Assembly: GCA_035326305.1 (NCBI GenBank)
Contig: DAOLFO010000041.1
Span: 1-15,567, forward strand
Source: Chitinophagaceae bacterium
Lineage (GTDB): Bacteria > Bacteroidota > Bacteroidia > Chitinophagales > Chitinophagaceae
DNA length: 15,567 nt
Direction of reading: 5' to 3'
Shown: one piece after another, positions 165-8,857 of the stretch
How positions within the stretch are numbered: the first letter of the stretch is position 1
How the letters are laid out: each line of letters opens with the position of its first letter
Made by a program: the position numbers and the translations under genes
Notes under the pieces: model-generated
Databases searched by the model: none
The model's input: only the letters and a program-made list of their open reading frames with translations
What the model was told of the DNA's origin: nothing

Positions 165-194
165 TTTGAAAAACTAAAATATTTAGTAAATTTA
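165..194 (+). promoter_or_regulatory. Weak candidate Bacteroidetes-type promoter (TTTG-N18-TAAATTTA) upstream of the 2H phosphoesterase gene
   Basis: TTTG at 165-168 and TAAATTTA at 187-194. The spacing is 18 rather than 19-21 and the last base is A rather than G. It lies in a divergent intergenic region. Confidence 0.2.
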
Positions 195-968: not shown

Positions 969-1060
969 GAGGGTTTGAAGTTTGAAGTTTAAAGTTTGAG
1001 GTGTAAGGTTTAGGTGTTTAATAGGTTTAAGAAGTTCAAGAGGTTAAAAAAGTTTAAAGG
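966..1060 (+). repeat. Copy A of a C-depleted heptamer-array repeat (gtttgaa gtttgaa gtttaaa gtttgag gtgtaag gtttagg ... ggtttaagaagttcaagaggtt...)
   Basis: A tandem of degenerate 7-mers GTTTRAR/GTTCAAR seen directly in the sequence. It starts at the TGA stop (966-968) of the upstream gene. The block ggtttaagaagttcaagagg is shared with copy B. Confidence 0.8.
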
Positions 1061-1088
1061 GGTCTGGGGGAAATTATCAGCGGGGGGT

Positions 1089-1505
1089 ATGCGTATGGAA
1101 ATGAAGAACGGGAAAGTGCATGAGCCGCTTTCCGGCAGGGAAAAATACCTGACCGGGCAGGTGGTGGGCATTGCCATAGCGATACACAGGGCACTGGGTC
1201 CGGGACTGCCGGTGCAGGTATACGAAAGATGCTTTTGCCACGAGCTTCACAAAAGAGAAATAGGTTATGTGCGGCAGCATAAAATTGATTTGGTATATGA
1301 TGATATACGGATAGAGGATGGCTTGCAAATAGATATTTTGATAGATGACCTTATCATCATTGAGCTGAAAGCGCAGGAAGCGCATCACCCTGCCTGGGAG
1401 GCCCGGTTGCTAAGCTGCTTAAGGCTGACAAAGAAACGACTGGGCTATATACTGAATTTCCATGCGCCGTTGATGAAAGAGGGTATTAAGCGAATGATAA
1501 TCTGA
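1089..1505 (+). CDS. GxxExxY family protein (PD-(D/E)XK nuclease superfamily)
   Basis: The core ...GKVHEPLSGREKYLTGQVVGIAIAIHRALGPGLPVQVYERCFCHELHKREIGYVRQHKIDLVYDDIRIEDGLQIDILIDDLIIIELKAQEA...LGYILNFHAPLMKEGIKRMII matches the conserved GxxExxY layout (HR.LGPGLLE.VYE ... ELK ... INF). The ORF-track start at 1014 runs through repeat A (FKKFKRLKKFKG) and is probably an artefact. Likely starts are Met 1089, 1095 or 1101. Confidence 0.75.
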   Translation: MRMEMKNGKVHEPLSGREKYLTGQVVGIAIAIHRALGPGLPVQVYERCFCHELHKREIGYVRQHKIDLVYDDIRIEDGLQIDILIDDLIIIELKAQEAHHPAWEARLLSCLRLTKKRLGYILNFHAPLMKEGIKRMII

Positions 1506-1570: not shown

Positions 1571-2695
1571 ATGAGTAATCAGTTAAAGCAGGACCACTAT
1601 AAAGTGGCCCCGAAAAAGCAGGAGGAAGCAGCGGGAGAAAAAGCGGGCAGCTATATTGCCGGAAGAGGGGCGCAATTCAATACGAAAAACCGGTTTCTGA
1701 AAGATGAACGGACCCGGGAGCATATCGAAGGCATTGATGACTGGGAAGAAGCCATACAACCCACACAATATATCGAGCAGCAGGCAAAGACGATTGTGAA
1801 TAAGGTGGAGAGCAAAGATGTGGGCATGGGCTACAGCATGAATCCGTATGCCGGCTGTGAGCATGGCTGTATCTACTGCTATGCACGCAATGTGCATGAA
1901 TACTGGGGCTATAGCGCCGGGCTGGACTTTGAGCAGAAAATCATTGTAAAAAAGAATGCACCGCAACTGCTGCGGAAATTCCTGATGCACAAAAGCTGGG
2001 ATGCCACACCCATCATGCTCAGTGGTAATACCGACTGCTATCAGCCCGCCGAACAAAAATACCGGCTGACGCGGGGGCTGCTGGAGGTTTGCAATGAGTT
2101 TAACCAGCCGGTGGGCATACTGACTAAAAATTCATGGATACTGAAGGATAAGGATGTACTGCAGGAAATGGGGCGGAAAAAAATAGTATCGGCCATGGTG
2201 TCTATTACTTCCTTTAATGAAGACCTGCGCCGGGTAATGGAGCCGAGAACAACTACTGCCAGGCAAAAACTAAAAGTGATTAATGAATTGAGCAGCGCCG
2301 GTGTGCGCATGGGCATCATGATGGGGCCGATGATACCCGGCCTGAATGAGCATGAGATGCAGCGCATCATGAAAGCGGCGGCAGACAATGGCGCCACGTT
2401 TACCGCCTATACTTTCATCCGGCTGAACGGGGCCATCAAGTTTTTGTTTCATGACTGGTTGTATAAAAACTTTCCTGACCGGGCAGATAAAATATGGCAC
2501 CTGATAGAAAAAAGCCACGATGGCAAAGTAAATGATACCCGGTGGGGAGTACGTATGAGGGGGGAAGGGCCGATAGCAGAGATAGTGGCGCAGCAGTATA
2601 AAAAGTATGGAAAGCTCTATGGGATGAATGCAGAGGAGTGGAGCCTTGAGAGGAACCTGTTCAGGAGGCCGGGCGAGCAGGGAAGGTTGTTTTGA
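1571..2695 (+). CDS. Radical SAM protein, PA0069/SplB-like family (COG1533 'DNA repair photolyase'-type)
   Basis: 374 aa with the CxxxCxxC cluster in YAGCEHGCIYCYARN. Length and layout match the PA0069-family rSAM proteins. Its TGA stop (2693-2695) is the first triplet of repeat copy B. Confidence 0.7.
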   Translation: MSNQLKQDHYKVAPKKQEEAAGEKAGSYIAGRGAQFNTKNRFLKDERTREHIEGIDDWEEAIQPTQYIEQQAKTIVNKVESKDVGMGYSMNPYAGCEHGCIYCYARNVHEYWGYSAGLDFEQKIIVKKNAPQLLRKFLMHKSWDATPIMLSGNTDCYQPAEQKYRLTRGLLEVCNEFNQPVGILTKNSWILKDKDVLQEMGRKKIVSAMVSITSFNEDLRRVMEPRTTTARQKLKVINELSSAGVRMGIMMGPMIPGLNEHEMQRIMKAAADNGATFTAYTFIRLNGAIKFLFHDWLYKNFPDRADKIWHLIEKSHDGKVNDTRWGVRMRGEGPIAEIVAQQYKKYGKLYGMNAEEWSLERNLFRRPGEQGRLF

Positions 2696-2750
2696 GATTT
2701 GGGAGGTTTAAGAAGTTCAAGAGGTTTAAAGTTTAATGTTTAAGGTTGGG
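2693..2750 (+). repeat. Copy B of the heptamer-array repeat (tgagatttgg gaggtttaa gaagttcaa gaggtttaa agtttaa tgtttaa ggttggg)
   Basis: Seen directly. It shares TGAGATTTG with copy C, ggtttaagaagttcaagaggtttaaa with copy A and gtttaaggttggg with copy D. Confidence 0.8.
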
Positions 2751-3110
2751 TGGTGTTAAAGTACCAGGGAAGGCTTGTTGTAACAGGTTGCCGGTAAAAA
2801 TAGCAGCAAGCATAACGATGAGGTTTTTGAAATCTGCTTAAGAATGTCTGCAATGGTTACAGGCAGGCATCACCTGATACGAGATGGCGGTGAAAGAGCT
2901 GCTATAAATTATTTTTTAAAAATTCTTCTTCAAAAATTTGGCAACAACAAAAAAATAGTTTCATCTTTGCACCGCAAAACAAAAAACATGCTACGCATAC
3001 AGTTACATATTGAAGCAGGAAATTGGTTTAGCCCCAAAGGAGGCTATACCAGTTGCGGGGCATGTAGTGCTGCGAATTAAGTTGCAATAACTCATTCAAT
3101 GAAATACAGG

Positions 3111-3140
3111 CCCCGCAAGAGATTGCGGGGTTTTTGTTTG
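3111..3140 (+). terminator. Rho-independent terminator (CCCCGCAA-gaga-TTGCGGGG + TTTTTGTTTG)
   Basis: A perfect 8-bp GC-rich stem, 4-nt loop and T-run. There is no convincing protein gene upstream, so it probably ends an ncRNA or leader. Confidence 0.7.
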
Positions 3141-3399
3141 TATATATTTCACCACCTGCCGGCATCCTGACAGATGCTGAAGCGGGAGTAAGAAAATAAA
3201 AATCAAAAGAGATAAATGACAGTGTTATCATGGTATCATCAGTTGGGGAGTAAAAAAAATACACCCTTAGGCATGTGCTGCTTTATAAAAGCAGTTGCGG
3301 GGAATGGTGTGCCCGTTATGCAAATTGATAACCGAAATAAAAATAAAAGACCGGATGGTATTCCGATACGGGTGTGTTAACACCTGTCAGCAGGATTAA

Positions 3400-3430
3400 G
3401 CCCGGTCAGCAGTTGACCGGGCTTTTTTAT
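3400..3430 (+). terminator. Rho-independent terminator (GCCCGGTCA-gcagt-TGACCGGGC + TTTTTTAT)
   Basis: A 9-bp stem, 5-nt loop and T6 run, immediately upstream of the SD of the 45-aa ORF. A T-run follows only on the + strand. Confidence 0.7.
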
Positions 3431-3450
3431 ACCCGGAAAAAGGAGGAGCT

Positions 3451-3588
3451 ATGAAATTTTTGCTGGCTGTACTGGTAATTCACCTGGTAATCGCTTTTAT
3501 CAGCAACAGGAAAGAAAATAAAAAAATGCAGCAGGGGCAGCCGAAAGCTGATGGTGCTTTGCATCCGGCGGAGTACCTGCTGCGCTAA
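3451..3588 (+). CDS. Small ORF, 45 aa, hydrophobic N-terminal helix plus charged tail (MKFLLAVLVIHLVIAFISNRKENKKMQQGQPKADGALHPAEYLLR)
   Basis: An ATG preceded by AGGAGG 4 nt upstream, which is unusual in this genome style. One predicted TM helix followed by a basic tail. It sits between a terminator and the tRNA-like genes. Confidence 0.3.
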   Translation: MKFLLAVLVIHLVIAFISNRKENKKMQQGQPKADGALHPAEYLLR

Positions 3589-3702
3589 CAGGATTATGTG
3601 CAGAAGGAGGGATAAAGCTCCCCGCAGGTGCAGCGGGGATGCTTTTCCAAAAAAACAACCGTTAAACCTACTATGAAAATGGCGGCAGCAATGCCGCTGC
3701 CT

Positions 3703-3775
3703 ATAGCAGCATTCCAATTGGTTGGATACTCCGCCTGGAACGGAGAGGATGCAGGTTCGAGCCCTGCCTGCTATA
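3703..3775 (+). tRNA. tRNA-like gene, 73 nt cloverleaf, anticodon UGG (Pro) at canonical positions, with C8 and C33
   Basis: Hand fold of 3703..3775. Acceptor ATAGCAG/CTGCTAT is 7/7 paired. D-arm TTCC-AATTGGTT-GGAT has G18G19. Anticodon stem CTCCG/CGGAG with loop CCTGGAA. Variable loop AGGAT. T-arm GCAGG-TTCGAGC-CCTGC has a canonical T-loop. Discriminator A. The deviations are A1-U72, C8 (normally U), C33 (normally U) and one D-stem mismatch. Confidence 0.5.
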
Positions 3776-3860
3776 CATTAATTGTTATGAATTTAGAGAG
3801 AGAGAGAAGCCGGAGGCTTAAGCCATCCGCTAAAACAGTATGAATAAACAAGAGCAGTAC

Positions 3861-3933
3861 GGTGCTTTGGCAGAATGGATAGATGCGCCGGAGTGAAATC
3901 CCGGAGATCGTGGTTCAATTCCACGGGGCACCA
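3861..3933 (+). tRNA. tRNA-like gene, 73 nt cloverleaf, anticodon GAA (Phe), followed by CC
   Basis: Hand fold. Acceptor GGTGCTT/GGGCACC with two G-U pairs, U8. D-arm GCAG-AATGGATAG-ATGC. Anticodon stem CCGGA/CCCGG with an A31-C39 mismatch and loop GUGAAAU (U33, G34A35A36, A37). Variable loop AGAT. T-arm CGTGG-TTCAATT-CCACG. Discriminator A73, then CC at 3934-3935. G32 is unusual. Confidence 0.5.
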
Positions 3934-3971
3934 CCGGAAGAGTAGAAAATAAAAAAAGAAAACAAAGGAAA

Positions 3972-4499
3972 ATGGAGGCCGATATGGAAGAGACACAGCT
4001 ACAATGGAGAAAGCTGAACGGTGAGCGGCTGCGGATACCTATTGCCGAAGAAGTAAGCCGCATATTAATGCAGGAACGTGCTATGGGATATGATGTGAAA
4101 GCCTGTATTGGCACCGATAGCCAGGTGAAAGGTAAAGTGACAACGTTTGCTACCGTTATAGTATTTGTCCGGAAAGGAAAAGGCGGCTTCATGTATATAA
4201 GGAAAGAAGTTACAACACAGCGGATGAGCATCAAACAAAGGATGCTGGAAGAGGTGGCCAGGAGCGTGGAAGTGGCTTATGGGCTGTGCCGGTTATTTTC
4301 CCGGCATGGAGTGGATATGGAAGTGCATGCGGATATAAACACCAATCCGGGCTTCAAAAGCAACGATGCGTTAAAGGACGCCATGGGCTATATCATGGGA
4401 ATGTTTGCCCGGCCGGGAGAAACGGGTGGAGGCTTTGCCTTCAGGGCTAAACCGGATGCTTTTGCCAGCTCCAGTTGTGCAAATAAAATAGTGCAATAA
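3972..4499 (+). CDS. Hypothetical protein, possibly DUF458/YkuK-like RNase H-fold family
   Basis: 175 aa. CIGTDSQ near residue 45, VTTFATVIVFVRKGKGG, EVHADINTNP and a C-terminal AFASSSCANKIVQ resemble what I recall of the YkuK (DUF458) family. The family call is from memory, not a search. The gene itself is solid (clean ORF, co-oriented, 36 nt after tRNA-like 2). Confidence 0.45.
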   Translation: MEADMEETQLQWRKLNGERLRIPIAEEVSRILMQERAMGYDVKACIGTDSQVKGKVTTFATVIVFVRKGKGGFMYIRKEVTTQRMSIKQRMLEEVARSVEVAYGLCRLFSRHGVDMEVHADINTNPGFKSNDALKDAMGYIMGMFARPGETGGGFAFRAKPDAFASSSCANKIVQ

Positions 4500-4529: not shown

Positions 4530-5606
4530 ATGGAACATTTATTTAATCAGAAAATCATCAATGCCAATAACGTGTTTGATGATGTATTCCTGGATGCGAA
4601 GATGCTGTACCTGTACTGCTTCAATCATTTGCCCAGCAGGAATTTTATTGACCGGGTGGACGGCGAAAAAGCCTTTGCTGCGTTTAAAGAGCGCTATGCA
4701 GATATGATTGAGCACATTCATCAGTACCGGTGGTATCAGCAGGAGAAAAGGAAGTACCGGTTTGACCGGACTGTATTGATCCTGAAGAACAATTGCATTG
4801 CGGAGTTTGATGAAAACTATTGTGAGTTTTATCATGATGGCGGGGATGCAGGGTTTGCAGATGAATTGACGGCGCTGGTATGCCAGTTTAAAGAGCGGCA
4901 GCGCAGACAGCCCCTGGAGATTAACCTGATTGTGAAAAATAGCAGGGGGCTGTACCTGAAGGGTATGGAGATAAAACGTACAAAGCTGGATCTTGACCTG
5001 TATTATGAAGATGATTTTAAGGAAGTGGATCAGTTGATAAGGGAGCGGTTGTCGAAGAAAAATGATAAAGGCATCGTGTTGCTGCACGGGCTGCCGGGTA
5101 CGGGTAAAACAACTTACCTGCGCCACCTGGTGGGCAGGATACGGAAGCGGGTGCTTTTCCTGTCGCCATCGGTAGCGGATGATCTGATGAACCCGGATTT
5201 TATCGAGCTGCTTATTGATAACCCCAATACCGTACTGATCGTGGAAGATGCGGAAAATATTATCAGGGACAGGAAGTATAGCAATAACACATCGGTATCA
5301 AACCTGCTGAACATCTCTGACGGGCTGCTGGCGGATTTCCTTAATGTGCAACTGATCTGTACGTTCAACAGTTCGCTGACAATGATAGATCATGCGCTGA
5401 TGCGGAAAGGAAGGCTGATAGCCAGGTATGAGTTTGGTAAGCTGAGCGCCGGGAAAAGCCAGCGGCTGAGCGACCGGTTTGGCTTTAAAACAAGCATCAG
5501 CGGGCCGATGACGATAGCGGAGATTGCCAACCAGCATGAGAAAAGGCAGGAGCCGGAAAAAGTGGAGATAATCGGGTTCCGGCGCACTGCAGAATTGATG
5601 AATTGA
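4530..5606 (+). CDS. AAA+ family ATPase (classical AAA core in the C-terminal half, uncharacterised ~170-aa N-terminal domain)
   Basis: Walker A GLPGTGKTT, Walker B VLIVEDAE, and SRH/arginine-finger region HALMRKGRLIARYEFG. There is no protease or other fused domain, and the N-terminal region has no recognisable motifs. Confidence 0.85.
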   Translation: MEHLFNQKIINANNVFDDVFLDAKMLYLYCFNHLPSRNFIDRVDGEKAFAAFKERYADMIEHIHQYRWYQQEKRKYRFDRTVLILKNNCIAEFDENYCEFYHDGGDAGFADELTALVCQFKERQRRQPLEINLIVKNSRGLYLKGMEIKRTKLDLDLYYEDDFKEVDQLIRERLSKKNDKGIVLLHGLPGTGKTTYLRHLVGRIRKRVLFLSPSVADDLMNPDFIELLIDNPNTVLIVEDAENIIRDRKYSNNTSVSNLLNISDGLLADFLNVQLICTFNSSLTMIDHALMRKGRLIARYEFGKLSAGKSQRLSDRFGFKTSISGPMTIAEIANQHEKRQEPEKVEIIGFRRTAELMN

Positions 5607-5803
5607 TTTCAACCTGATAGCTGACCGGGTGTCAGCGCAAAAGCTTGCTTAACGGCAGGGCTGGTATTGCCTCTCCGGCAGTTAAACTATGCTTGTGTTT
5701 TTTAAAGGCACAGCAGTGCAGGCGCTATAGCTACCTGTATGCTGTTGCTGCAGCAGGGCATACCGGTAACACGCAGTTTCCTGAACGGGAAGTGCAACCA
5801 CTT

Positions 5804-5839
5804 GCAGGTTCGAGTCCTGCTTCTCCCCCAACGGGAGAA
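5804..5839 (+). other. Isolated tRNA T-arm plus acceptor-like hairpin (minihelix-like tRNA fragment)
   Basis: GCAGG-TTCGAGT-CCTGC is a canonical T-stem/T-loop, 16/17 identical to the T-arm of the 3703 tRNA-like gene. It is followed by TTCTCCC-ccaac-GGGAGAA. No 5' acceptor strand or anticodon arm could be folded upstream. Confidence 0.35.
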
Positions 5840-6206
5840 TGGCGGAATTGGTAAACGCAAAGCAATGGGGATGCTTCGTAAAAAGAAGTACACCACTTCT
5901 TAAAAAATGGTGAAGTGATAAAGCTGGTATTTCATGCCGGCCATACAATTCCCTGGTACTTCGCCGGTGTACGTTTTGGGTATGCTGGCACATGGCGGGA
6001 AGTATGGCAACCGGCTAACGGCCTGCAGGCAGGTAATGTACAGATGGCTTGTATAATAAAGGCGATGACTGGCAGTAGGCAAAAAGCTTGCAGGCACTTG
6101 TTGCATAAAATATACAATAGTTTAGGCTCAGCCTGCCTCCGCTGATAGCCGGTGGTATGAAATACTGGTTTTATTAAACAGGTAATAACAGTTAAAAGAT
6201 AAAAAA

Positions 6207-7307
6207 ATGAAAAAAGTAAAAGTAAATGAATACCAGGTGGCGCTGGTTTTCAAAGACGGGGAGTATAAGAGGATGCTGACCAAAGGCGTGTACTGGTTTT
6301 GGGGAAATGAAGTGATACAGTATTATGATAAAACCAGGCCATTTGCAGCACCGATTGACCTGAATATCCTTTTGCAGGATAAAGCGCTGGCCGATGCCCT
6401 GTATGTAACCGATGTAAAAGAGAACGAGATAGTACTGCAGTATGAGCAGGGATTGCTGAGCAACGTGCTGGTTGCCGGAAGGTATGCTTTCTGGAAAGGT
6501 ATTGTTGATTATAAATTTGTATGGGCGGATATTGGTAAGATAGCCATCACTGAAGATATCAGCAGGACTATACTGATGAGCAGGCAGGTAGCGCCATATG
6601 TGCGTACCGTAAATGTGGAGAATTATGAAAAAGCGATCCTGTTTGCAGACGGTAAATATGACCGGGTGCTTGACAGCGGTGTGTACTACTGGTGGAAGAA
6701 CAGCATCACAGTGCATATAGCGAGGGTGGACATGCGCCAGCAGCAACTGGAGATCAATGGCCAGGAAATACTGACCAGGAATAAAGCGGCATTGCGCATC
6801 AATGCGTGGGCACAGTATAGGGTAGCAGATATAGAGACAGCTATATTGGATAACAAGGAGTATGATAAGCAGCTCTATGTAGCTTTCCAACTGGCCCTGC
6901 GGGAATATGTGGCCGGCTTCAGTTTTGATGAGCTGCTGGAGAAGAAAGATACCGTTGCAAAGTTTGTGCTGGAGCAAATGAAGCAGAAAGCAAAAGAGCT
7001 GGGCGTGGACGTGAATGACTTCGGCATCAGGGATATCATATTGCCGGGTGATGTGAAAGAGATCATGAACCAGGTACTGATAGCAGAGAAGAAAGCACAG
7101 GCTAACACTATCATGCGCCGGGAAGAAACAGCCAGCACCCGGAGCCTGCTGAACACTGCCAAACTGATGGAGGATAATGTAATGCTATGGAAGCTGAAGG
7201 AAATGGAGTATGTAGAGAAAATTGCAGATAAGATCACTAACATCAGTGTAAATGGTAACGGTGACCTGGTAAGCCAGTTGAAGCAGATATTTGTGGCGCA
7301 GAAATAA
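6207..7307 (+). CDS. SPFH/band-7 (stomatin/slipin-like) domain protein with a duplicated N-terminal module
   Basis: 366 aa. The N-terminus has an internal repeat (NEYQVALVFKDGEYKRMLTKGVYWFWG vs ENYEKAILFADGKYDRVLDSGVYYWWK). An SPFH core follows (LEINGQEILTRNKAALRINAWAQYRV...ILPGDVKEIMNQVLIAEKKAQANTIMRREE) with a coiled-coil-like C-terminus. Confidence 0.8.
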   Translation: MKKVKVNEYQVALVFKDGEYKRMLTKGVYWFWGNEVIQYYDKTRPFAAPIDLNILLQDKALADALYVTDVKENEIVLQYEQGLLSNVLVAGRYAFWKGIVDYKFVWADIGKIAITEDISRTILMSRQVAPYVRTVNVENYEKAILFADGKYDRVLDSGVYYWWKNSITVHIARVDMRQQQLEINGQEILTRNKAALRINAWAQYRVADIETAILDNKEYDKQLYVAFQLALREYVAGFSFDELLEKKDTVAKFVLEQMKQKAKELGVDVNDFGIRDIILPGDVKEIMNQVLIAEKKAQANTIMRREETASTRSLLNTAKLMEDNVMLWKLKEMEYVEKIADKITNISVNGNGDLVSQLKQIFVAQK

Positions 7308-7352: not shown

Positions 7353-7405
7353 TGAGATTTGAAGTTTGAGGTTTAATGTTTAAAAGGTTCAGGAGGTTTA
7401 AAAAT
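7353..7405 (+). repeat. Copy C of the heptamer-array repeat (tgagatttgaa gtttgag gtttaat gtttaaa aggttcag gaggtttaaaaa)
   Basis: Seen directly. It lies between the SPFH terminator and the rtcB start, and its left end TGAGATTTG is identical to copy B. Confidence 0.8.
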
Positions 7406-7411
7406 AGTTTT

Positions 7412-8857
7412 ATGAGCAAATTAAAAATAACAGGGAAAGACCTGAGAGCTATTGATTACCCGGAGGGCCCGGTGATCAGCATAGCCATGCGTGTGGTGCA
7501 TAAGCATTACAAGCATCATGAAAAGGAGGAGGTAATGGACATATTAAAAAGAATACTGGCGGAGCCGGTGGAGTATGAGAAGGATGCGGTGCTGGGATTG
7601 ATAGCAGCGCAACTAATGCCAAAGAAGAAGGAAGGGAATGCAGAAATATCATTGAACCAGCAGGGAATACAATTTAGTGTATTCGGGCAGGAGCATATTG
7701 AAGAAGGGGCGATGCACCAGATGTACCAGGCGGCAAAGTTGCCCATAGCAGTTGCAGGTGCTTTGATGCCGGATGCCCATAGCGGGTACGGACTGCCTAT
7801 TGGTGGCGTATTAGCTACGCAAAATGCAGTGATACCTTATGGTGTGGGAGTAGACATCGGGTGCCGGATGTGCCTGAGCCTGTATGATATTGATCCAAAA
7901 GAGCTGGTGAACCGGGAGGCATTTTTTATACGGGAGCTGGGTGTGGCTACACTGTTTGGAAGCGGTGCACAATTTCAGCAAGCTGCCGATCATGCCGTGA
8001 TGGAGAATGAGCTGTTCAGGCAATTGCCATTGCTTAAACCCTTGCACGGAAGGGCATGGAAACAATTGGGATCATCCGGCTCCGGTAATCACTTTGCCGA
8101 ATTTGGGATAGTGGAAATAGCAGAGAAGGATGCTGTGCCGGGTGTGGAAGCGGGAAGCTATGTAGGTTTTCTGACGCACTCCGGTTCACGGGCATTGGGG
8201 GCCAATATTGCCAACCATTATACAAAGCTGGCCATCAGCAAAAGACGGCTGCCGCAGGAAGCGAAAAACCTGGCCTGGCTGACACTTGATGAAGCAGAGG
8301 GACATGAGTACTGGCTGGCGATGAACCTGGCCGGGGATTATGCATCGGCCTGCCACCATGTGATGCACGATAAGATTGCTAAACAACTGGGAAGAAAACC
8401 ACTAAAGCGGGTGGAGAACCACCACAACTTTGCCTGGAAGGAAATGTATGAAGGGCAGGAGGTAATTGTACACAGAAAAGGCGCTACACCTGCAGGGAAA
8501 GATGTGCTGGGTATTATTCCCGGTTCGATGACGGCAGCCGGGTTTATTGTAAAAGGTAAAGGAGAGGTTGCCTCTGTCAACTCAGCATCCCATGGTGCAG
8601 GAAGAAAGATGAGCCGCAGCAAAGCACTGCAATCAGTAACGGACAGGCAAATGAGAGAGGAACTGGATAAGCATGGCGTGAAACTGCTGGGTGGCGGACT
8701 GGATGAATCGCCATTTGCTTACAAGGACATTCATGTAGTGATGCAATCGCAACAATTGCTGGTGGATATAGTAGGACAGTTTACGCCAAAAATTGTAAAG
8801 ATGGATGGCGCACCACATAAGCAGTGGGGGAAGAAGGGTTCGGGAGGCAGGGTTTAA
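7412..8857 (+). CDS. rtcB: RNA-splicing ligase RtcB (3'-phosphate/2',3'-cyclic phosphate to 5'-OH RNA ligase)
   Basis: MPDAHSGYGLPIGGVLAT...IPYGVGVDIGCRM, GSGNHFAEF, ENHHNFAW and SASHGAGRKMSR are hallmark RtcB metal/GTP-binding motifs. The ORF-track start at 7376 reads through repeat C (MFKRFRRFKNSF), so Met at 7412 (MSKLKITGKDL) is the more likely start. Confidence 0.9.
   Translation: MSKLKITGKDLRAIDYPEGPVISIAMRVVHKHYKHHEKEEVMDILKRILAEPVEYEKDAVLGLIAAQLMPKKKEGNAEISLNQQGIQFSVFGQEHIEEGAMHQMYQAAKLPIAVAGALMPDAHSGYGLPIGGVLATQNAVIPYGVGVDIGCRMCLSLYDIDPKELVNREAFFIRELGVATLFGSGAQFQQAADHAVMENELFRQLPLLKPLHGRAWKQLGSSGSGNHFAEFGIVEIAEKDAVPGVEAGSYVGFLTHSGSRALGANIANHYTKLAISKRRLPQEAKNLAWLTLDEAEGHEYWLAMNLAGDYASACHHVMHDKIAKQLGRKPLKRVENHHNFAWKEMYEGQEVIVHRKGATPAGKDVLGIIPGSMTAAGFIVKGKGEVASVNSASHGAGRKMSRSKALQSVTDRQMREELDKHGVKLLGGGLDESPFAYKDIHVVMQSQQLLVDIVGQFTPKIVKMDGAPHKQWGKKGSGGRV

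Follow-up and report, generated by a model that had tools for sequence, protein, structure and literature searches.

A tRNA-Phe(GAA) gene at positions 3861-3934 of a 15,567-nt window from a Chitinophagaceae bacterium is very probably a conserved accessory tRNA, the terminal member of a reduced supernumerary array that stands on an RtcB/Band-7 repair operon. By the window we mean the whole stretch of DNA analysed, which is part of a 43-kb contig of a Chitinophagaceae metagenome-assembled genome. To read the gene in context, we rely on 80 loci (numbered with the prefix L) from distinct Chitinophagaceae species, taken from an alignment of Band-7 homologues whose proteins are 67-78% identical to that of the window. 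Array counts rest on the 59 of these loci with enough upstream sequence, here called evaluable.

The Phe gene and the array to which it belongs

The two tRNA genes of the window and the sequence between them are as follows.

3703-3775, plus strand: tRNA-Pro(UGG)-like gene, first array member (Rfam, 48.5 bits; without an ARAGORN call)
3776-3860, plus strand: non-conserved spacer (BLAST coverage of 0-2 loci over 3781-3860)
3861-3934, plus strand: accessory tRNA-Phe(GAA) gene, last array member (ARAGORN, Rfam, 31 aligned orthologues and covariation)

Conservation and covariation carry the case for the Phe gene. Two mutually unrelated sequence families are represented among the Phe genes of this slot, with two copies at one locus; the gene of the window belongs to family 1, which begins with the invariant 14-mer GGTGCTTTGGCAGA. 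Across 31 family-1 sequences (30 distinct), 93% of the cells of the cloverleaf are paired, against 38-51% when the partners are slid. Nine stem pairs are changed on both sides, in 58 cells and mostly in the anticodon and T stems, and none of 500 shuffles reaches the observed values. The pairs U6.G67 and U7.G66 are found in 26 of 30 orthologues, the remaining four having U-A, and A31.C39 is found in 19 of 30, each time with the loop GUGAAAU. These odd features stay while neighbouring stem pairs go from C-G to U-A and the T stem changes. We interpret this pattern, a comparative one, as the mark of a functional RNA whose anticodon arm is unusual but under selection, and not of decay; a preliminary description of this DNA had spoken of weakened stems, a label that does not suit pairs, a mismatch and a loop kept across genomes amid compensatory change elsewhere. 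Among array Phe genes as a whole, U33 and GAA are invariant and positions 32, 37 and 38 occur in many states, with 32 and 38 pairable in all A37 variants but one (G.U, G-C, C-G, U.G). The loop is possibly constricted through a G32.U38 or G32-C39 pair.

The gene itself is readily recognised. ARAGORN calls a single tRNA in the window, tRNA-Phe(gaa) at 3861-3935, and the Rfam tRNA model RF00005 matches 3861-3933 over its full length (model positions 1-71) with 46.2 bits (E 2.7e-07), where the gathering score is 29. With stems of 7/4/5/5 bp and a score above this curated threshold it is, by the RF00005 criterion, an elongator-type tRNA. The acceptor is GGUGCUU/GGGCACC, with the two G.U pairs included, and the T arm is CGUGG-UUCAAUU-CCACG. 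The tertiary nucleotides U8, A14, G18G19, G53-U54-U55-C56, A58 and C61 are present together with U33 and a purine at 37, and all are invariant or nearly so in the orthologue alignment. The anticodon arm, CCGGA-GUGAAAU-CCCGG, gives G32, U33, GAA, A37, U38 and A31.C39, and thus departs from the elongator pattern of a pyrimidine at 32 and a paired 31-39. The 3' end consists of A73 at 3933 and CC at 3934-3935, of which only C74 (3934), which is conserved, is meaningful; N73-C74 without CA is the norm in the array and flanking housekeeping tRNA genes of Chitinophagaceae.

Most of what the preliminary description had reported of this gene was borne out. A tRNA-like GAA gene with U8, U33, A37, a canonical T arm and a discriminator A followed by CC is seen in the sequence and by both programs, and the two acceptor G-U pairs, the A-C at 31-39 and G32 can all be read directly. 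Its statement that the standard 73-nt numbering fits exactly holds for the total length, but only through a 9-nt D loop offset by a 4-nt variable loop; a plain linear count puts the start of the anticodon at 35. The YkuK-like ATG at 3972 lies 36 nt beyond the 3' end of the gene, in the same orientation, and a terminator scan of that interval gave no terminator-like site, again as described.

Phenylalanyl-tRNA synthetase (PheRS) recognises, in the bacterial identity set known from E. coli and T. thermophilus, GAA, A73, U59, U60 and G20. GAA and A73 are both present in the window's gene, U59 and U60 are invariant across the family, and position 20 is A, not G.

At the syntenic site in relatives, co-oriented tRNA genes (ARAGORN) form arrays of 0-15 genes per locus, with at least one gene in 53 of 59 evaluable loci. 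Their loose order is Pro, Glu, Asp, Gln, His, Arg, Met, Ile, Val, Lys, Asn, Tyr, Ser, Ser, Cys, Phe, Trp. Phe(GAA) is present in 41 of the 53 arrays, every time last or with only Trp after it, and by this comparison is the most widely retained array member. The window keeps just the first (Pro-like) and the last (Phe) member, where the closest relatives have arrays of 7-12 genes. At the position of the window's spacer, relatives have 5-13 further tRNA genes, with 5-10 between Pro and Phe in the closest ones. We therefore read the two genes, described earlier as a pair, as the remnant of a much larger array and not as a two-gene unit. A lenient Rfam scan of 2600-4100 (E up to 10) gave no tRNA remnant beyond these two.

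Around the array, relatives share the order 2H, radical SAM, a short conserved ORF-like block (ORF, open reading frame), tRNA array, YkuK-like and AAA (in either order), Band-7, a variable insert and RtcB. Synteny extends downstream, often with the same genes (HGSNAT/NusG/Wza/Wzc), and the array site looks vertically inherited. The preliminary description had asked whether the tRNA-like genes are conserved beside YkuK-like/AAA+ orthologues; the Phe gene is found there in 41 of 59 evaluable loci and is missing from the other 18. Six loci have no array, and their sole tRNA-model matches in Rfam are to the non-coding RNA (ncRNA) beside Band-7 discussed below. The array is thus dispensable or accessory, and those six genomes must encode tRNA-Phe elsewhere. 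The six array-less loci also argue against the refuting case named in the preliminary description, in which this would be the sole tRNA-Phe gene of its genome. Its view that the locus is unusual for housekeeping tRNAs is supported. As a separate observation, extra co-oriented tRNA genes occur downstream of Band-7 in two loci, as a mini-array of Phe, Asp, Gln, Asn and Tyr at 9176-9933 of L066 and as a Lys gene at 9146-9218 of L053.

The Pro-like gene sits 85 nt upstream of the Phe gene. Its loop, CCUGGAA, holds the UGG anticodon with C33 and A37, and it has an A1-U72 pair; homologues in about 34 loci mostly have C33, and UGG is invariant. Between the two genes lie an (AG)6 run (3796-3807) and a 10-bp palindrome, GGCTTAAGCC (3815-3824), both as noted before. 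Neither is a designed feature, since the spacer is not conserved and the AG run is a microsatellite variable in length and sequence. In four other assemblies of the same organism the run reads AGAAAGAGAG, and both tRNA genes are unchanged.

Array tRNAs (n = 471) average 48% GC, against 56-64% in five flanking housekeeping tRNAs, and G1 is the first nucleotide in only about half of them. Their amino-acid-specific identity nucleotides are retained, which speaks for tRNAs that can be charged, or could be until recently. C73 is found in 37/37 His genes, nearly all of which pair it with G-1; the discriminators of Cys (U73, 11/11), Trp (G73, 12/12), Ser (G73, 35/37) and Asp (G73, 27/31) are retained; A73 is found in all Ile and Met genes and in 34/47 Phe genes; Ala has G3.U70 in 4/4; and long variable arms are kept. 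Elongator tRNAs nearly always have U33 and a purine at 37. Conserved rule-breaking loops occur inside perfect 5-bp stems in the arrays of L003-L080 (for example, L071 2655-4192), namely Asp U37 in 11/31 (G37 in 20/31), His C37 in 13/36, Glu U37 in 7/19, Val G32 in 6/10 and C33 in most of the Pro-like genes. The identity nucleotides of the array would favour charging, and the rule-breaking loops would favour something other than efficient decoding. The Rfam bit score was dropped as a mark of array tRNAs, as it gave no separation from the few flanking housekeeping tRNAs. Genes for tRNA-Ile(UAU) are present in 12 arrays.

Control region and repair operon

Upstream of the array, three elements may bear on its expression.

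3398-3424, plus strand: strong intrinsic terminator (12-bp stem, then a T run)
3451-3588, plus strand: conserved 45-aa leader ORF (aligned upstream of the first tRNA in about 20-30 loci)
3617-3646, plus strand: terminator- or attenuator-like hairpin (3617-3642) with U tract (terminator scan, and covariation in 26 loci)

A second strong terminator at 3108-3133 is conserved, and together the two terminators set the 2H and radical-SAM genes apart, so that the tRNA-repair unit appears to start after 3424. The leader ORF combines a hydrophobic N-terminus, a variable middle made up to 54% of N, K, E and D, and a C-terminal HPAEYxLR followed by the stop; synonymous codon variation in this conserved C-terminus indicates translation. 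The hairpin starts about 30 nt past the leader stop, ahead of the first tRNA. In the 26 loci 96% of its cells are paired, double changes affect seven of nine pairs (0/500 shuffles), and the loop keeps its sequence. Both leader ORF and hairpin are also found in L005, which has no array. Together they look like a leader-peptide attenuator that would serve the whole operon. A conserved AAGGAGG box likewise comes after the leader ORF (3451-3646 region).

Scans for promoter elements gave little. The Bacteroidetes -7 motif TAnnTTTG was absent near the array and not enriched in the window, and a sigma-70 promoter scan stayed at chance level. A perfect Bacteroidetes LexA box, CTAA-N5-TTAG (CTAAAATATTTAG), is found at 174-186 (plus strand), upstream of the 2H and radical-SAM genes; the Bacteroidetes SOS regulon is reported to include SplB-type radical SAM proteins. 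Still further upstream, the source contig (L201) carries a divergent S24-peptidase and ImuB/DinB-like pair. For the array itself SOS control was considered and rejected: no array has the LexA motif in the 700 nt ahead of it.

Between the radical SAM gene and the array, the 'orf78' block (2844-3133, plus strand) is conserved in about 45 loci. Its first half has in-frame stops in relatives, and only a peptide of ~30 aa (MLRIQLHIEAGNWFSPKGGYTSCGAC..., from 2989) stays open, with the strong terminator at 3108-3133 after it. The block is either a small peptide gene or a small RNA.

The array is followed by the genes of the operon.

3972-4499, plus strand: YkuK-like RNase H-like protein, PF04308 (Pfam E 1.8e-31; kept downstream of arrays)
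4530-5606, plus strand: classical AAA ATPase, PF00004 (Pfam; conserved in the loci)
5640-5915, plus strand: structured ncRNA with a permuted tRNA-like (YrlA-like) module (BLAST conservation, Rfam, RNAalifold)
6207-7307, plus strand: SPFH/Band-7 (slipin-like) protein (Pfam E 2.5e-32)
7376-8857, plus strand: RtcB RNA ligase (Pfam E 1.1e-77; kept downstream of Band-7 in related loci)

On the plus strand the window thus reads 2H/LigT-like phosphoesterase, PD-(D/E)XK GxxExxY, PA0069-family radical SAM, the two tRNA-like genes, YkuK-like, AAA, Band-7 and RtcB, after which come the unrelated chromosomal genes DoxX, META, HGSNAT-like, UpxY-type NusG, Wza and Wzc. The PD-(D/E)XK GxxExxY gene (1014-1505, plus strand), here between 2H and radical SAM, is there in 0 of 80 related loci. 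The nearest solved relatives of the AAA ATPase are BCS1 and proteasomal ATPases. Band-7 homologues number in the thousands, the nearest (72-79% identical) being from Chitinophagaceae. Searches of NCBIfam and of PDB sequences with the YkuK-like and AAA proteins gave no functional lead past the fold class, and a PADLOC search for known defence systems gave only weak P-loop matches to the AAA protein.

Between Band-7 and RtcB, relatives carry inserts with two RlaP nucleotidyltransferase paralogues, an Rv2179c-like 3'-5' exoribonuclease and an LA2681-type HEPN protein (L046 9148-10951; L071 13129-13656; L013 6916-8532, the last with the HEPN). These genes count for the repair-operon reading, and the locus is one of the RNA-repair and conflict type that Burroughs and Aravind surveyed. 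Pfam gives no match for several further proteins that recur in the inserts (about 265, 330 and 500-700 aa).

The ncRNA, about 280 nt long and set between AAA and Band-7, has a T arm (5804-5820), a closed acceptor-like hairpin, and D-arm-like and anticodon-arm-like elements. RNAalifold on 18 loci gives 71 pairs, 38 of them with compensatory changes. Its Rfam matches are a sub-threshold one to YrlA (21.9 bits in the window, 37 bits in L052) and weak ones to tRNA. It is found even at array-less loci, and it may be the real RNA partner of Band-7. Most relatives have two modules in this RNA, the first of which the window is without.

What the Phe gene may do

Several points weigh against the combined reading of an accessory tRNA-Phe that works in the way proposed below. 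The array has been lost in some lineages, so the operon works without it. The discriminator is G and not A in 8 of 31 aligned Phe orthologues and in 11 of 47 array Phe genes. The window's gene is without G20, a determinant for E. coli PheRS. Its single-sequence minimum-energy fold is not a cloverleaf (z = -1.7); the structural support is thus comparative, and thermodynamics alone is not evidence here. G32 and A31.C39 may impair decoding and would equally suit a decoy. Array members for Lys, Met, Ile, Ser, Cys, Tyr and Arg have ordinary conserved loops, and with so many of these nuclease evasion cannot be the whole story. Lastly, a separate housekeeping tRNA-Phe in the window's genome is presumed, the analysis having covered the 43-kb contig of that genome.

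The reading of the gene as an accessory tRNA can be extended to a mechanism, which has in our estimate about an even chance of being right: a spare Phe acceptor, expressed conditionally, that nucleases would cut poorly because of its odd anticodon arm. Transcription would start upstream of the leader ORF and be gated by the terminator hairpin, with read-through plausibly under translational or tRNA-damage stress. A single transcript would then carry the tRNAs, followed by YkuK-like, AAA, the YrlA-like ncRNA, Band-7 and RtcB; the lack of a terminator between the Phe gene and YkuK, together with the strong terminators upstream, counts for such a unit. RNase P and 3' processing would free the tRNA, and its CCA would be completed as in other Chitinophagaceae tRNAs. 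The freed tRNA-Phe (A31.C39, G32, U38) would be a spare Phe acceptor and a poor substrate for anticodon-loop nucleases, and RtcB and its partners would meanwhile reseal damaged RNAs. Co-transcription, inducibility, charging, decoding and nuclease resistance are, for this tRNA, predicted properties. Precedents are the stress-induced L-arrays co-regulated with rtcB in Anabaena (PMC8421152) and the phage tRNAs proposed to evade anticodon nucleases through loop changes (PMC10264068).

As the main rival, the gene could encode a non-decoding mimic that acts off the ribosome, as a decoy, sponge or competitive inhibitor of tRNA-targeting RNases, or as a cofactor or bait for Band-7, AAA, YkuK or RtcB. 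This comes closest to the preliminary description, which had favoured a mimic over a decoder, and we regard it as possible but rather unlikely. Arguing for it, the Phe anticodon arm is conserved yet non-canonical, with G32, A31.C39 and the near-constant ability of 32 and 38 to pair when 37 is A. Near-universal rules are also broken by the Pro-like C33, Asp U37, His C37 and Glu U37, and the Pro-like gene adds its A1-U72 and an A37 where G37 is usual. Sponge or inhibitor roles have been proposed for operonic tRNAs (PMC8421152) and YrlA (PMC7790460), and b7a-tRNA is, in the summary given in 10.1101/312249, a tRNA look-alike linked to Band-7 and RtcB. Counter to this, the discriminators, His G-1, Ala G3.U70 and long variable arms that the array keeps would be needless for a pure anticodon-loop decoy, and many array members have fully canonical loops. 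Moreover, the separate tRNA-like ncRNA that is universally present beside Band-7 is the likelier obligate RNA partner. The mimic is thus not established, and the identity nucleotides of the array argue for chargeable tRNAs.

The gene could also matter as a processing signal in cis. In this case cleavage by RNase P and RNase Z at the last tRNA would set and stabilise the 5' end of the YkuK-AAA-Band-7-RtcB mRNA, a like role beside the attenuator could fall to the first tRNA, and the freed tRNA would matter little. The survival in the window of the first and last members alone would fit, as would the constant place of Phe beside the first ORF, or with only Trp between, and the short gap from the last tRNA to that ORF (median 116 nt in the loci, 36 nt in the window). 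Such a signal leaves unexplained the invariant GAA and U33 and a loop conserved in 19 loci; 12 of the 53 arrays are without Phe, and six loci keep the operon without any tRNA. We consider it improbable.

Less probable still is that both genes are decaying and without function, what is left of an array on its way out in this lineage. The fall from 7-12 genes in the closest relatives to two points that way, truncated or rearranged copies are present in L024, L043, L021, L022 and L079, and the window's spacer resembles a deletion scar. Against decay, the Phe gene is about 95% identical to its orthologues in L057, L015 and L022, whereas the neighbouring Band-7 proteins of the related loci are just 67-78% identical to that of the window; the universal tertiary nucleotides are all intact and the stems covary; and both tRNAs are identical in the four other assemblies of the organism. 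That the gene is the cell's only or main Phe decoder, placed upstream of the operon by chance, would suit GAA, A73, U59, U60, the canonical T arm and a C74-only 3' end like that of the family's housekeeping tRNA genes, but it is very improbable in view of G32 and the A31.C39 mismatch, the absences from 18 of 59 evaluable relatives (six of them without any array), the two unrelated Phe families in one slot with two copies at one locus, and the wide variation of loop positions 32, 37 and 38 inside one bacterial family.

Likeness to known systems

The Phe gene belongs to known kinds, as an L-array tRNA and a Band-7-associated tRNA, and its family-wide context, through the attenuator-like leader, the YrlA-like ncRNA and the edited loops, is of more interest than the gene alone. 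Supernumerary L-arrays are known from seven phyla including Bacteroidetes (Santamaria-Gomez et al. 2021, PMC8421152). In Anabaena the L-array is silent until translation is impaired and is co-regulated with rtcB, and operonic tRNAs have been suggested to top up the tRNA pool or to sponge toxin RNases (PMC8421152). The Chitinophagaceae arrays (up to 15 genes in relatives) share with L-arrays a co-oriented, tightly spaced and non-periodic make-up that adds redundant isodecoders, a content that shifts by frequent insertion, duplication and deletion, and a tie to rtcB and RNA-processing genes, functional and genomic in L-arrays and seen here as physical linkage. As expected of arrays absent from close relatives, sizes run from 0 to 15 among genomes with Band-7 proteins 67-78% identical to that of the window; the redundancy of the isodecoders is presumed. 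Conditional expression under translational stress, proposed for L-arrays, is suggested here by the leader ORF and hairpin.

In other respects the two differ. The Chitinophagaceae array holds one syntenic site family-wide and looks vertically inherited instead of scattered by horizontal transfer, it stands directly upstream of repair genes with which it is apparently co-transcribed, and ahead of it a leader ORF and hairpin take the place of the direct-repeat operator of Anabaena. The window's copy has only two genes. Conserved rule-breaking anticodon loops like those seen here were not found described for L-arrays. In the literature searched, Chitinophagaceae arrays of tRNA genes joined to a Band-7/RtcB operon were not found described, which is weak evidence of absence.

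The b7a-tRNA of Burroughs and Aravind (2016), as summarised in 10.1101/312249, is a tRNA look-alike adjacent to a Band-7 gene and RtcB; that summary gives it as lacking experimental validation and mentions YrlA as occasionally taking its place beside Band-7. To the extent of that summary, the Phe gene is alike in strongly resembling an authentic tRNA and in sharing a cluster with Band-7 and RtcB, and unlike in lying 2.3 kb from Band-7 with two protein genes between. The universally present ncRNA directly upstream of Band-7 may be the true counterpart. We found no Rfam family under the name b7a-tRNA.

Phage tRNAs with altered anticodon loops are proposed to escape anticodon nucleases, according to the outline in van den Berg et al. 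(2023, PMC10264068), and a tRNA-Lys of phage T5 is set against PARIS in that of PMC11464382. As outlined there, they resemble the array genes in being extra copies, altered at anticodon-loop nucleotides outside the anticodon and proposed to sustain translation when host tRNAs are cut; the array genes differ in being chromosomal and host-encoded, and their nuclease resistance is predicted only. A phage origin of the array was considered and rejected. A 15-gene array compared by BLAST with 50,697 phage records showed only generic single-tRNA similarity (76-83% identity among the matches listed), and the 14-mer GGTGCTTTGGCAGA was found in 120 viral contigs, none of which runs on into the tRNA, as expected of chance matches.

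A bolder proposal, which we hold to be unlikely, makes the whole locus a family-wide tRNA-damage response cassette. Cleavage or depletion of the Asn, Lys, Glu and Asp tRNAs would make ribosomes stall on the leader rich in these residues, the hairpin would be overridden, and reserve tRNAs with edited loops (C33, pyrimidine-37, paired 32-38, G32/A31.C39) would escape or jam anticodon nucleases, co-switched with the YrlA-like RNA, Band-7, AAA, YkuK and RtcB. If true, this would be a host-encoded counterpart of phage tRNA escape, coupled to a new kind of attenuator. The questions of the substrates of bacterial RtcB and of the purpose of cryptic tRNA arrays meet here in one apparent transcription unit with a recognisable control element, the leader ORF and hairpin, and the unit occurs in cultivable Niastella, Pinibacter and Paraflavitalea. 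The link between RtcB repair and tRNA arrays thereby becomes testable. The rule-breaking anticodon loops offer natural variants for studying substrate recognition by tRNA-targeting toxins. For annotation, array genes should neither be thrown out as pseudo-tRNAs nor be counted in the core tRNA set.

YrlA, a bacterial Y RNA (RF02553), is a tRNA-like RNA in rsr-yrlBA-rtcBA operons (10.1101/312249; PMC7790460). The likeness to the Phe gene lies in a tRNA-like RNA encoded together with RtcB; the Phe gene differs in being a full cloverleaf with an anticodon arm, and the YrlA-like element of the window is the ncRNA at 5640-5915. With E values up to 10 allowed, RF02553 still gives no match over 3861-3933. 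The D arm of the Phe gene (UGGCAGAAUGGAUAGAUGC, 3869-3886) is similar to the D-arm-like element of that ncRNA (UGGCGGAAUUGGUAAACGC, 5841-5859), and class II tRNA-Leu has a D arm like both of them. The likeness may reflect common ancestry or a shared binding partner.

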